Of a stretch of 64,000 nt of DNA, positions 5,771-27,034 are shown in pieces. Both the position numbers and the translations under genes were made by a program. A model generated the notes under the pieces. That model was not told the origin of the DNA. It saw only the letters and a list, made by a program, of their open reading frames with translations, and made no database searches. The stretch covers positions 1,688,538-1,752,537 of the forward strand of contig MU004235.1 in assembly GCA_010405405.1 (NCBI GenBank), in the 5' to 3' direction. This stretch comes from Microthyrium microscopicum. Lineage: Eukaryota. Positions within the stretch are counted from its first letter, which is position 1. Every line of letters begins with the position of its first letter.

Positions 5771-8700
5771 ATGACTGGTGTTCCAGTAGAGACTGAAAAG
5801 GCCATTCGCTACATCCAGACCTTGGATCTGGCCCGATGCCAAGGTCAATGGCTTCAAGTTCCTGAACACGCTCGCAAGGTCGAGAAACATGCGCCTCATC
5901 GCAACAGTATGTCAAATTCGCCAAATCCAACTACATATTCTCTGCTAACTATTCTCAAGTTCTCGTCCTCACTGCCAGGGCAGAAGCATCCGCTGCCACC
6001 ACCGCCTTTTCCGAACAATCCTCCACCTTCCGACCCCTGATATCATCCTTGGTCGACGCCATAACCAAACCAAATCCCTATCCCGAAGACTCTTTTCAGG
6101 CAATAGTATGTCTGTCCTGGTTACATTGGCTTCTCCAAGAGCCGGAGCAAGCTTTGGCCCAACTCGTCGAAGATCCGGTCACCGCATATGACACTGCCGC
6201 TACTGAGAGAGCTCGCTCAAGAGAATGGATCAAGGTATGCGCTCTGAAGTATGCATATATAAAGGGTCAGTCACAGTCAGGAAACACCTAGCCAAATTCT
6301 GACATTGAACAGGCTTCACCCTCGAAAAGTCCAATTTACCAAACGAGGCCGCGATCGCCTATTATTCCGCGCTTCCCTTACTCTCCGACGTTTCGAGGAA
6401 TGTTGCTCTAGGATCGATGCCACGAGAATTCAGGCTTTGGGCCGAGAGATTGTTGTCGCGCTGCGTAGCATACACCCTGAAAGCTCAACCTCTCGATGAA
6501 AATACCGAATATGGCCGATTACTCCAAATTTTCCATCATTGGGCCGCCTTGTTCAATTTCCATCCTACAGACTCCAAAACCGGACTTCAAGCACCTCAAA
6601 CTACACCTGACTTTGAACTTGGACAGGAAGTCGAGTATACACGATGGAACATGTGGATGTCATACTACACCATCCTCTCTCAGATTTTGAAGAGAGGATT
6701 TGTGTATTCAATTTCATACTCTGACTCGAACCCAAACGTGTTCACTGCGCCGTCGAATTACACCGCAGAGGAATACCGAGATTCTCGATTGAAACAGCGC
6801 AAGGAGCTAAAGAACGTGGAAAATTGTATAGAAACGAAACTCCTCGAAGAAACTAGCTTTCCAAAAGCCCACGTACGCAATGAACGAGTGGAGAATTGGG
6901 CTGATGCCATCATGGATAATTGGAAAATCATGTGTGGATCAAGCTGGTCAGATGCCGATTTAGGTCAAGGTGGTAAAAACGCAATTGCCAAAGGTGTCTT
7001 GGATGTCAGTTTTATCATAATGTGTACTTGCATTATTATTTTCTAACGTATTTTAGATTCTTTACCGAGCTGCGACAAAGACCTTTCATTCAACACAGAT
7101 ATTGCGACACCTTTTTACAGTCCACGCGTATCTGGCTGAATTTGACCTCGCGTTGAAGGCTCTGGATTCTTACTTGGAGCTTTATACACGCGGAAAGGCC
7201 AGAACTGAAAAGACAGGAGAAATTGATTTCAGTTTGGACCATGAAGATAAGGTTTTATGGATACTAAGTGAAGCTATTTCCATCCTATGTCGATTTGGTG
7301 GACGAAAAGAGGCAGAGAAAGCAAAAGATATTGCAGCAAAACTACGACTCTGGACAGAAGAATGGGACACTGAGCCTCAAATTCAAGAAGCCACCACGAA
7401 TGAACCGAATGGATTAAATGGAAGTGGTAACATCACCGAGCCTATTGTCAAGCCAGTATCAGGATCCATCATCTCGGTCGCATACCACGCGCTTGGAACT
7501 TCAGAAGCCCATTGGGGACGACTGACATATGAAGCATCTACTCGGACTCAACATCAAAACAAAGCACAAGAATACTTTCGACTGGCTTTACAAAGAAAAT
7601 ACAGAAACTCGCGGAACTTGGATTATTTATATTCCCTTGCAATTTTGATGGCTGAAATGAGAGATATACCAGGCTCCATTAAAGTCGTTAAACAGGCGCT
7701 TGCCGAAGGCGCAAATCAAGGAACATCAGAGGATGACTTCCAAAAGGAGAGAAAGCTCATTCGCTTTTGGCATCTACTAACTCTCCTACTGAGCGCTAGA
7801 TCCGACCTTCTGAATGCCGCGAAAGCATCCAACGCCGCTTTTGAACAATTCCAAGACCCAGGCATGCTCTTTGGCCATCAAGAATATCGGTCCGAGCACC
7901 TCAACGATACCGAGAAAACCAATAGCCCAGCTTTAATCGACCACATGAATCCTTTTGAAAAAGTCGGCGTTCTCGAAGTCAAAATGACTCAAGTTGCTCT
8001 ATTGGAAGCATTTGAAGGACCCGCCTCCGCCGTCGAAGCTTCCCCCGATCTTCTCGCCCTCTACGTGCGTCTCTTTGGCGATTTAAGAGATATGGAGCCC
8101 ATGAAAACAAGTGGGGAGGCAAAAGTGCCAAAGTCTAGGGTGGGGAGTCTGAGAGCAAGTCTTTTTAAGCGTGCACGTAGTAGAAAAGTCGATAACCCAA
8201 GGATTAATGTAGGACCTCCCCAGACAGCTCAACCACCACAAACGGCGATCCTTCAAACTGTTCAGACGGCCGTGGCGTTTCCCCGTCCCTCGACGGCAGG
8301 TACTTCGACGGCCGCGCCTACGATTCAGGTTACGGATACTTCCTCGTCTGGCATTGTTGAAGCACGCGGTAGGCCTACGACCAATGGTATTTCTGGGAGG
8401 CCAAAGAGTGGTGTTTATGATGGTACGAAGAATGCTGATGGTAGATTGGTGCAGAGAAGTCGAAGCCGTAGTAAGATTCGCAAGCGGAATTCCGTGAGGG
8501 ATTCAATGGAAAGTTTTAGACCGCCGAGTCCGACTGCAAATTACGATGAGAATTCACCGGAGAATGCGGAAGCACAGCAGATCAACGGTGTTTCTTCCGT
8601 GAGCGTGCGGAATTCTGTGCAGAGCTTTGCGAGACCTGGCACCTCGACTTCTACGGCAACGAGGACGACGGTTGCTCATCGTAATAAGCGAGAATCAAGT

Positions 8701-24016: not shown

Positions 24017-24483
24017 GTGAGGAACAGAGAGGTCATTCTGACTGTATATCCTGCGTAGAAGTTGAGAAATTTGAGATCAATATTGAACTGTAAGCTAGAG
24101 CCTAGGAGGCTGCCAGGCAGAACATGGAAATAGAACTCAAGTCCCCGAGCCTGCTCCTGGACTCCTTGATCTAATACAACGTGCAAATCAAGCGTATACC
24201 CATGTGCAATCGTTACCACCATAATTTTGTTTGTAGATTCAGGAGTTTCGTTTCATCATGCTGCCATGCATAACAATGCTATGGCGATCACCACGTTCTT
24301 TTGAATAATGACAGCCTAGCTATATGAAAGAGGAGAAGTATATGTTTTCCCCTTCTGTTTCAATCTGTAGAAAGATCAAAAGTGATGTTTTATCCATGAA
24401 AAGTGAGAAAGATAAGAAACTGCTGGGTGATCGTAGTGTAACTGATATATATACGATTTTGAGCACATTTTTGGCTGTTTTAT

Positions 24484-24665
24484 GCCCCATTGACGCAGTG
24501 GTTAGCGTGTGGTTCTTAGTCAGTAATTTTCCAACCCTGCGCGGGTCAGCGCTAGTGATCGAGTCGTCATACTAACCGGCAATAGTACTATGACTAAGCT
24601 CTAGTATGGCAGGTTTTTGTCCTGTTGCGATGCCAAAGTCGTGAGTTCGACCCTCACATGGAGCA
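24484..24665 (+). tRNA. tRNA-Ile(UAU) with two intervening sequences: a spliceosomal-type intron 24519-24585 inside the anticodon and a canonical tRNA intron 24588-24629
   Basis: Acceptor GCCCCAT/ATGGAGC plus discriminator A, D arm ACGC-AGTGGTTA-GCGT, anticodon stem TGGTT/TGCCA, variable AAGTC, T arm GTGAG-TTCGACC-CTCAC, and a T6 terminator at 24671-24676. The scaffold resembles eukaryotic tRNA-Ile(TAT). The loop CT-TAT-A-A forms only after both inserts are removed. Confidence 0.88.
24519..24585 (+). other. U2-type (spliceosomal) intron within the tRNA anticodon, between A35 and T36
   Basis: Donor GTCAGT (the same donor as two YPP1 introns in this window), perfect branch TACTAAC at 24570-24576, acceptor AATAG. 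Its 67-nt length is like the mRNA introns nearby. Confidence 0.82.
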
Positions 24666-26215
24666 ATTTGTTTTTTGGTCTATAACATTTATTTTTTGGG
24701 TGCTTATGCAATACATATGGGCTGAAACTCGAGAGAGCGTTGTTGAGAAGAGTAGTTTGTGGTGGTGGGGAATAAAGGCTTCTTTGTTTTTTGGGATTTG
24801 GGTGGATATAATGCTGTTCAATAGGCAGATGGTGTCGCAGATAGAGTAGAGAACACACGATCAAGCGAAGGAAAGGACCCTCCAGTTGGAAAAGTTTATG
24901 TTAAGTTAATGATCAGATGGGATATATTGGACCGCACTTCCTCGGCATTTCCCAGCATCCAGGTTCGATTTGGTTGCGCAATAGATGGGGAATGATTTTA
25001 GGTAAGGCGTTCTCATGGTAATCAAAATTGGGTCCCGGTTGGTTACTGGGGTTTATATACTTTGTTAGGTACTGGTATATCTGGCTGGAAGATAATGTAT
25101 TAGCGGGAAGCGTTTGACGCATCTTTTGATCTCTTCTTGAGTTTAGAGTAAGTTGAGACAGAAATCGTCCATTGACATTGCTCAATATGGGACAGGATGT
25201 AGTGACTTCATCAGTTATTTCGTCAGGTGGAACAAAGCATAATGATTTCATATCTTGAGCCCAGATGTTTCGGTTGTGCAAATCATTTTGGTATACGCCA
25301 CACTCTGGTTGGGGGTAGTCTAACCCCAGACTGGAGCAAGTTGAGACGAATTGGTGTTTCATGGGACAAGTTTAGAAACAGTGGATCCTTTTGCTTTTCT
25401 AGTTCACAAGTTCACAACGATGGCAGCAAAAAATGGTGTGCAGATTGTTTGGAAGTGTAAGAGTGGATGAGAACAACCCAAGGGGGAAAGGTAAACGAGG
25501 GTGCAGCGTGGTAAAAGATGGTACGTGCAAAGGCTCACGGACCAAGGGCGTCATCTAGAAGGATTATCGAAGGTCCGAGGAACATTCTAAAGAGTCTAAA
25601 GAGTCTAAAGCGACAGGTTTTGTTTAATTTGACAGCGGCCACGATTTGACTCGACGAGTGGGCGTACAGTAGCGCGCAGACGAGCAGCCAAGACTCAAGA
25701 GGGAGATTTGAACTCGACTTTCTGTCCAGGACTCCAGTGTCAGGAGGGGCATTTCAATGTCAGTACTATAGGGGTCGATAGAGTATAACTTATATTGCAT
25801 GTTGATGAGAAAAGATGGGATGGAGCATTGGAGATGGATTTGGATCTTGTTAACCTGTTACTGATCTCTCCTTGAGTCCTTCAAGATCCCATAGAGTACT
25901 ATCTTCTGGCATTATTGGGATCCTCATTGAATTTTGCTAGACCGATGGTCCCGCTTTATCCATTATTCCCACGATTCCTGCTGTGACACCCTTGAATCCT
26001 CGTGTTAACCAACAATTGTTGACGAATTGCCCCATCCCCCCCGAGCGGCTCTTTTACTTGTGAGACTGTTTCCGGAAAGGAGGGTAGTGTCCGTAGAGCA
26101 GACCTTGTTAAGCCTGGATTGTTTTAACCACTGGCACTGGCACTGGCAATGGATAAAAGGTGAAAAAGACGACGGACATTTCCAGCAGCCAATTTACTGC
26201 AGCACTGAGCCGAGG

Positions 26216-26246
26216 ACTGACGACTGACGACTGACGACTGACGACT
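26216..26246. repeat. (ACTGACG)x4 tandem repeat
   Basis: Directly visible: actgacgactgacgactgacgactgacgact. Confidence 0.9.
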
Positions 26247-27034
26247 CATCTTCTCAACTACACTTGTACTCTCAACATCAAGATTTCTCTCTCCCTTTAC
26301 AAAGCACCACCACCACCACATTATACCAGGTACCATACATTCGCGCCCGCTCTGCCACAGACCTGCTCTATCTGCTGCCAACGCTCTCCATTACCCATCA
26401 TGTCTATTACCTGAATAACGCGCTTCCTTCTCCTCTACCGTATCCTCCCTGTCTCCATATCCCTCTCCGATTATCTCCTCAAATATACCCAGACACCCAG
26501 AAGCCTTCCCTGTCATTCATGCCCTAGCCAGACCAAGGACCCGCGACCCGTCAGACCCTCGCCAACGCCCTGAGTGGTAGACTGCTGCTTTGCCCGCCAG
26601 GTCCAGTCCTCCCTCAATATACTGCACGCGTTCCTCTCGGATCGCCCAGATCACCTCCCTCCTTGTTCCACTTGGCTTCTGAAATCACCCTCTATCCTCG
26701 TCCAGACATGCCCGCCCTGTGAAGAGCTGCTTGCAACCGCTCTTCCGTCTATTCTGCACCTTGCCGATGCGAAGCTGTCATCCCGCTCTACTCCCAACAA
26801 CTTGCCTGCAGCTAGCTCGGTACCTACCAAACAACATTGAGAACAACTATACATGCCAAAAAGACTGCTTGGTTCAGCTTTGACTCTAATATATTAACAT
26901 CTTGCCACCTGGACTTGGCCCTACCTTAGACACGTTTGCCCAAGATTCGAAAATATTTCACTTTCGCTTGCTTGTCTCGTGCCCCTCTAAGAACACCAAG
27001 AGATTGACCCGCGCCTGGTCAAGTCGCATTTACA

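Follow-up and report, generated by a model that had tools for sequence, protein, structure and literature searches.

A probable tRNA-Ile(UAU) gene with a spliceosomal-type intron inside its anticodon in a dothideomycete fungus

Canonical spliceosomal introns interrupt many fungal U6 small nuclear RNA (snRNA) genes (Tani and Ohshima 1989, 1991; Canzler et al. 2016, cited in PMC5855946); these introns are often species-specific gains and are thought to be products of reverse splicing (PMC5855946, in its accessible text). The intron of the sole U6 gene of Schizosaccharomyces pombe is removed by the spliceosome, U6 being the one spliceosomal snRNA made by RNA polymerase III according to the available portion of 10.1101/2023.01.27.525755. 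Spliceosomal introns have likewise been described in U1, U2 and U5 snRNA genes and in ascomycete rRNA genes (Takahashi et al. 1993, 1996; Bhattacharya et al. 2000, cited in PMC5855946). The introns of tRNA genes are placed in a class of their own: the accessible sections of two reviews separate spliceosomal introns, as features of polymerase II transcripts, from the protein-spliced introns of tRNAs (PMC12530127, PMC10275265). Within that protein-spliced class, the yeast tRNA-Ile(UAU) intron is described as needed for pseudouridines 34 and 36 (PMC4090602), and multiple or ectopic tRNA introns are described in Cyanidioschyzon merolae and archaea (PMC3728597; PMC4090602, both in excerpt). Here we analyze a 64,000-nucleotide stretch of Microthyrium microscopicum DNA (assembly GCA_010405405.1, contig MU004235.1, positions 1,688,538 to 1,752,537; hereafter the window), in which 24484-24665 on the plus strand very probably holds a tRNA-Ile(UAU) gene with a true intron sequence of the spliceosomal type. 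The locus had been singled out by a model that saw the letters and their open reading frames (the original prediction), and we follow up its claims below.

A split anticodon on a tRNA body of Ile(UAU) type

The tRNA lies in two halves. The 5' exon (24484-24518, plus strand) supplies positions 1-35, comprising the acceptor strand, the D arm, the anticodon-stem strand and C32, U33, U34 and A35, and was delimited by ARAGORN with introns allowed. The 3' exon (24630-24665, plus strand, by ARAGORN) supplies positions 38-73, running from A38 through the second anticodon-stem strand, a 5-nucleotide (nt) variable region, the T arm and the acceptor strand to A73. The halves, predicted to stand about 110 nt apart, are separated by 111 nt, and the anticodon loop read straight through is indeed C-T-TAG-T, which gives a Leu anticodon followed by a pyrimidine at 37 on a body whose variable region has 5 nt. 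As it stands, the gene has no contiguous TAT anticodon followed by a purine at 37; TAT-A arises only on removal of 24519-24585. The predicted mature form has conserved tRNA positions and a short variable arm, folds into a cloverleaf at minimum energy, and has standard pairing in 19 of its 21 stem pairs, the exceptions being C3·A70 and U31·U39.

The 67-nt segment that interrupts the anticodon (24519-24585, plus strand) is of the spliceosomal GT-AG type. It opens with the donor GTCAGT (24519-24524), contains the branch sequence TACTAAC (24570-24576, branch A at 24575) and closes with the acceptor AG (24584-24585), all on the plus strand, and the branch A lies 10 nt before the G of the AG. The original prediction had read these U2-type signals at this length and place, and the sequence bears it out in full. 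Donor, branch, acceptor, spacing and length are all typical of the organism, as gauged by four local introns verified by RNA in two neighboring genes. With lengths of 63, 52, 59 and 57 nt, they begin with GTCCGT, GTGAAG, GTAAGT and GTAAGT and have the branch sequences TTAAC, CTAAC, CTAAC and CTAAT at 10-20 nt ahead of the AG. The added claim that local mRNA introns share the GTCAGT donor holds in part: it occurs in none of the four verified introns and in one that is predicted. The latter, a 52-nt mRNA intron at 7005-7056, combines a GTCAGT donor with a TTCTAAC branch and a TTTTAG acceptor, and its flanking open frames span 232 and 674 codons.

Removal of the segment leaves the loop as CTTA joined to TA, followed by 42 nt up to A38. 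The joined TA is the dinucleotide at 24586-24587 (plus strand), that is T36 and A37, which completes the anticodon TAT with a purine at 37; this assignment follows from the sequence, from ARAGORN and from the match of the loop to two of the reference genes introduced below (L081 and L083). The prediction that excision restores UAU with A37 was thereby confirmed both in the sequence and by the Ile(tat) call of ARAGORN.

We then asked how often such an arrangement turns up by chance, requiring that the 111 nt start with a donor, that an AG be preceded at 5-30 nt by a branch motif, and that TA follow this AG directly. The backgrounds were 200,000 shuffles of the insert and 127,778 window positions on both strands. 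A loose model was satisfied in 608 shuffles and at 538 window positions, and a moderate model in 20 shuffles and at 33 positions (about 1e-4). Under the strict model, in which the branch is TACTAAC, there were 0 hits among the shuffles and 2 among the window positions, at least one of the two being the site itself. The arrangement of splice signals at 24519-24585 goes far beyond a chance pattern. The 67-nt piece occurs once in the 64-kb window and is absent from 1.04 Mb of related loci, the longest chance match being 15 nt.

Standard finders did not see the gene for what it appears to be, as had been anticipated. Default ARAGORN and Rfam at its gathering score each returned 0 tRNAs in the window; ARAGORN with introns allowed returned one gene, 24483-24666, which it named Val(tac), placing one intron of 109 nt between anticodon bases 35 and 36, a non-standard site. 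When 24519-24585 was removed in silico, a check proposed with the original prediction and run here with ARAGORN, the call changed to tRNA-Ile(tat) and the canonical site now held an intron of 42 nt; with both pieces removed, default ARAGORN also returned Ile(tat).

The identity of the body was examined with a pattern of the 3' half, masked at seven variable positions, which was searched against other sequence collections; the viral match required one more mask. The pattern matched two loci in genome contigs and one in viral contigs, and ARAGORN calls all three tRNA-Ile(tat). The reference genes so obtained, none of them fungal, sit on short contigs filed under bacterial metagenome-assembled genomes (L081 and L082, each with a 16-nt canonical intron) and on a viral contig (L083, intron-less). 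The 5' half, which lay outside the search pattern, is invariant at 27 of its 35 bases in an alignment with L081 and L082, and this agreement runs through CTTA; directly past that point L081 and L082 read TA and the window reads GT. The 3' half is identical to L081 and L082 at 30 of 36 bases, bases that the search pattern itself had fixed. Over the numbered positions the gene agrees with L081 at 54 of 68 and with L083 at 57 of 68, its predicted loop CTTATAA is identical to the loops of both, and U30·G40 is common to it and the reference Ile(TAT) genes. Compensatory double changes set the gene apart from both L081 and L083 at pairs 7-66 and 10-25 and at the tertiary pair 15-48; at pair 27-43 such a change separates it from L081 only, L083 having T-A as in the window. 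Judged by these sequence comparisons, the body is of the Ile(UAU) type, and since all three pattern matches, the 5' half and the loop point the same way, the Val and Leu readings are ruled out.

The two names that the unprocessed gene invites were accordingly rejected, Val(UAC), the ARAGORN name, for its Ile(UAU)-type body and Leu(UAG) for the short variable arm together with U37. A further candidate was an Rfam tRNA match at 24598-24665, obtained in E-value mode at 22.3 bits against a gathering score of 29. It takes GCTCTAG from the 42-nt intron as acceptor strand and a GGCAGG/CCTGTT hairpin as anticodon arm, and was judged spurious because the real T arm supplies most of its score.

L081 (1-404) and L082 (1-490) hold eukaryote-type tRNA clusters of Leu(taa), Ile(tat) with its 16-nt intron, and Ala(agc), and these contigs are probably host DNA binned with bacteria. 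The L083 gene (301-373, minus strand) is near-eukaryotic in sequence and lies on a 140-kb viral contig. The supplement of PMC6582322 contained 0 occurrences of Ile(UAU) sequences.

A-box and B-box regions are present in the sequence, and TATATATA, a TATA element at 24446-24453 (plus strand), 31-38 nt upstream of the tRNA 5' end, could serve as an upstream promoter element. A T6 run at 24671-24676 (plus strand), 6 nt past the tRNA 3' end, resembles an RNA polymerase III terminator and may act as one; further T6 runs follow at 24692-24697 and 24787-24792.

The adjoining intron, RNA helices and RNA contigs

The second intron, 42 nt at 24588-24629 (plus strand), sits at the canonical 37/38 site and is of the type cut by the tRNA splicing endonuclease (SEN), as indicated by ARAGORN after in-silico removal of the 67-nt segment and by a constrained fold. 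Its segment TAGTATG (24602-24608) is complementary to the newly joined TATACTA and forms a 7-bp helix with it in the constrained fold, so that both hallmarks of a canonical endonuclease-type intron, the site and an anticodon-pairing segment, are found here. The position of this intron and its pairing had both been predicted and both hold, with the qualification that the TATACTA/TAGTATG helix taken alone is no stronger than chance (2,485 of 20,000 shuffles). The G at -3 from the intron's 3' end could pair with C32.

A search for the longest helix in the unspliced RNA returned a different pairing. CTTAGTCA (24515-24522) and TGACTAAG (24591-24598), both on the plus strand, form an 8-bp Watson-Crick helix that spans the 5' junction of the GT-AG segment and brings the two ends of the 67-nt piece together. 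Helices of at least 7 bp arose in 146 of 20,000 shuffles of 24591-24629.

Information on RNA comes from the assembled contigs of one public run, X1, and such contigs prove neither an RNA end, a junction, a strand nor an absence. The run is taken to be RNA because its contigs skip four GT..AG segments. Two contigs, neither assigned to a strand, cover the locus: one of 579 nt at 24586-25164 with a mean word depth of 12.5, and a second at 25158-25313 with a depth of 2. The first base of the 579-nt contig, 24586, falls directly after the proposed acceptor. Assembly-graph contigs end where two forms part, and a mixture of spliced and unspliced molecules would therefore set a boundary at this very base. 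We take the coincidence as a hint of the junction, compatible with splicing; the boundary could instead be the end of an antisense transcript. X1 contigs leave 24107-24585 uncovered. The 579-nt contig retains the 42-nt intron, passes through three T6 runs and reaches about 500 nt beyond the tRNA end. For these reasons a sense orientation would make it an extended transcript of polymerase II type rather than a normal pre-tRNA.

No coding gene was recognized under the 24586-25313 transcript. Its largest open reading frame (ORF), 152 aa on the minus strand at 24913-25371, has no Pfam family and 0 homologues among proteins of 83-266 residues, and the transcript is treated here as non-coding. This low-level transcript sits between an MFS-type gene and an F-box/cNMP (cyclic-nucleotide-binding) gene, and a donor-like GTAAGT occurs at 25148-25153 on the plus strand. 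The product of the F-box/cNMP gene shares 98% identity with a protein recorded at NCBI under Microthyrium microscopicum, a dothideomycete. At 25950-27008, the RNA contig of this gene starts about 1 kb ahead of the long open frame, which implies a long leader or further upstream exons. On the other side, the match of the MFS-type gene's contig to the window stops at 24023, where Illumina adapter sequence follows directly; the X1 contigs were therefore built from untrimmed reads.

Proposed two-step maturation and the competing readings

Codon use bears on whether the tRNA is needed. ATA accounts for 15 of 71 Ile codons among 1,277 codons of RNA-supported exons, which is ordinary use, and the S. 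pombe tI(UAU) gene is described as single-copy and essential in the accessible text of PMC11912914. Taken together, these imply that a working gene is needed somewhere in the genome.

The neighborhood was compared through 80 loci around orthologues of the neighboring F-box/cNMP gene, amounting to 1.04 Mb, with best-segment protein identity of at most 63%. ARAGORN found tRNA-Arg(tct) alone, in 3 of the 80. This gene has a 35-40-nt intron and in these three metagenome loci lies just downstream of the F-box orthologue (L074 13443-13555, L076 13520-13629, L080 4242-4351); the window has no tRNA at the corresponding place.

The reading we put forward is as follows. A nuclear tRNA-Ile(UAU) gene of a Microthyrium-like dothideomycete, already equipped with an ordinary 42-nt intron at 37/38, would have acquired a further intron, spliceosomal, of U2 type and 67 nt long, which splits the anticodon between bases 35 and 36. 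Its transcript would start just upstream of 24484. The spliceosome would act first, taking out 24519-24585 and joining ...CUUA to UA..., which would create the anticodon UAU with A37 and make pairing possible with UAGUAUG in the second intron. That intron, 24588-24629, would then be excised by the tRNA splicing endonuclease and ligase, and RNase P and RNase Z would trim the ends. The carrier may be the usual polymerase III pre-tRNA, in the manner of the spliced U6 snRNA of fission yeast, or alternatively a longer polymerase II transcript running beyond the T-runs. That the 67-nt intron is spliced in some transcripts seems to us slightly the likelier case. That a working tRNA-Ile(UAU) is made by this two-step maturation is quite possible, though short of probable; we infer every processing step and the function of the product.

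Several observations weigh against a working two-step gene. The junction of 24518 with 24586 occurs in none of the assembled X1 contigs, and no read of the mature tRNA turned up. Polymerase III transcripts are generally poor substrates for the spliceosome, and the CTTAGTCA/TGACTAAG helix covers the donor and would hide it from U1. A T5 run at 24614-24618 within the 42-nt intron could be an early stop for polymerase III. C3·A70 and U31·U39 are unpaired where L081 and L083 have U-A and A-U, and these mismatches would suit a copy that has died and is decaying. A search of metagenome contigs for an exact 22-mer of the 5' half gave 0 matches, and the 80 synteny loci contained no similar tRNA, the best BLAST match being 15 nt. 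Lastly, the tRNA endonuclease measures from the tRNA body by a ruler mechanism, as set out in the available text of PMC4090602, and for this reason it might cut the unspliced RNA directly and yield a useless UAG/U37 product.

Much of this evidence would suit a disabled copy, in which a spliceosomal intron, perhaps mobile or reverse-spliced, killed one tRNA-Ile(UAU) copy and a conventional copy elsewhere reads AUA; the intron may still be spliced from stray polymerase II transcripts that cross the locus, with no tRNA product. The uncompensated stem mismatches, the T5 run, the donor-covering helix and the failure to find a conserved orthologue (by the 22-mer in metagenome contigs and in the 80 related loci) all speak for it, as does the RNA contig, which with its retained 42-nt intron and its extension past the tRNA end looks like a by-product and not a pre-tRNA; introner-like intron gain has moreover been described in Dothideomycetes (PMC5647799, in excerpt). 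The exactness with which the anticodon is restored does not separate a disabled copy from two-step maturation, because excision of an intron equipped with its own signals would restore the anticodon in a working and in a dead gene alike. Against a disabled copy, every splice signal is still optimal and the tRNA is otherwise intact, with 19 of 21 stem pairs standard and with A box, B box and terminator in place, so that any death must be recent. The 67-nt piece also has no second copy in the window or the related loci, ATA codons are normally used, and the account becomes impossible if the single-copy, essential status stated for the S. pombe gene in the accessible text of PMC11912914 holds here. 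On balance we regard a disabled copy as the main rival, short of probable but nearly as likely as two-step maturation.

The RNA contigs admit a further account, in which the tRNA-derived sequence now acts chiefly as promoter and first exon for a non-coding polymerase II transcript (about 24480-25313) that is spliced and to which the GT-AG intron belongs. Contigs over 24586-25164 and 25158-25313, the 152-aa ORF with neither Pfam family nor homologue, the TATA element at 24446-24453 and the passage of the contig across three T6 runs are consistent with it. The contigs may, however, be antisense, their strand being unassigned, and the exact restoration of the Ile(UAU) loop is left unexplained unless the intron was first gained in a working tRNA gene. 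Such a transcript can coexist with either two-step maturation or a disabled copy, and as an account in its own right we consider it improbable. Still less probable, to the point of being hard to sustain, is a single 109-nt protein-spliced intron with no part for the spliceosome, whether at 37/38, giving UAG with U37, or between 35 and 36, giving Val(UAC) with G37. ARAGORN with introns allowed does call Val(tac) with a 109-nt intron, the 8-bp helix with 24591-24598 resembles an anticodon-intron helix (146 of 20,000 shuffles), and an endonuclease with the ruler mechanism described in the available text of PMC4090602 would cut at 37/38 regardless of sequence. However, all 3 pattern matches assign the body to the Ile(UAU) type, its short variable arm excludes Leu, and the spliceosomal signals would be left to chance, at about 1e-4. 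A pyrimidine at tRNA position 37 is highly unusual, and 35/36 is not known as an intron site of the fungal endonuclease. A look by eye found no bulge-helix-bulge pairing of the ends of 24519-24585 or 24519-24627.

Returning to two-step maturation, its strongest form would make this gene the source of the only AUA-reading tRNA, matured by the spliceosome, possibly on a polymerase II host transcript, and then by endonuclease and ligase. We consider that form rather unlikely.

Significance and comparison with known systems

Open-access papers and preprints, with subscription journals mostly outside coverage, were searched and yielded no nuclear tRNA gene with a spliceosomal intron. The original prediction had mentioned, as unverified, a comparable report in another ascomycete; no tRNA case came to light, and the nearest was the S. 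pombe U6 snRNA intron (PMC5855946, in its accessible text). The genome paper of Kuraishia capsulata (PMC3879985), a possible source of that mention, contains nothing of such kind in its available portion.

If the gene works, a tRNA is a natural substrate of the spliceosome, two splicing systems act in fixed order on one small RNA, and the supply of an essential decoder is tied to mRNA splicing. If it were also the source of the only AUA-reading tRNA, the decoding of one sense codon would depend on mRNA-type splicing, a dependence that the original prediction had put forward, and standard finders would wrongly list this tRNA as absent from such genomes. Should the gene prove dead, it would remain a rare example of spliceosomal intron gain within a 73-nt RNA gene, with a bearing on the origins of introns. 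Either outcome is unusual, and given that the gene escapes default ARAGORN and Rfam and is wrongly named Val by ARAGORN once introns are allowed, similar cases may be overlooked elsewhere.

The described systems resemble this locus in different respects. Introner-like elements are reportedly multi-copy families in protein-coding genes whose copies bring their own splice signals and represent recent intron gain; those of Dothideomycetes come from the same fungal class, whereas the 67-nt piece stands alone in the window and in the 1.04 Mb of related loci. The tRNA genes of Cyanidioschyzon merolae and archaea are alike in having more than one intron per gene, some at non-canonical sites, and in being overlooked by standard finders. 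Their introns, unlike this one, are marked by bulge-helix-bulge structures and cut by the tRNA endonuclease, where the segment described here has GT, a TACTAAC branch and AG. Ordinary tRNA-Ile(UAU) genes, including those of yeast, S. pombe and animals as well as L081 and L082, share the body, the CTTATAA loop and an anticodon-complementary intron at 37/38, but they have a single intron and an unbroken TAT, whereas here 67 extra bases lie between A35 and T36 and two stem positions are unpaired.

The U1, U2 and U5 snRNA genes and the rRNA genes provide the precedent of canonical spliceosomal introns in fungal structural RNA genes, some of them not transcribed by polymerase II; in none of them is the host a tRNA or the neighbor an endonuclease-type intron. 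Closest are the U6 genes, which like this one are small, non-coding genes of the polymerase III class with canonical 5' splice, branch and 3' splice sites. U6, however, works in the active center of the spliceosome, which explains how introns could enter its gene, and a tRNA does not. In the Microthyrium gene, known so far from its sequence, the anticodon itself is split, a second intron of another class adjoins, and two splicing systems would act in series. The tRNA host, the insertion site within the anticodon and the adjoining endonuclease-type intron would thus be what is new relative to introns of the U6 type.

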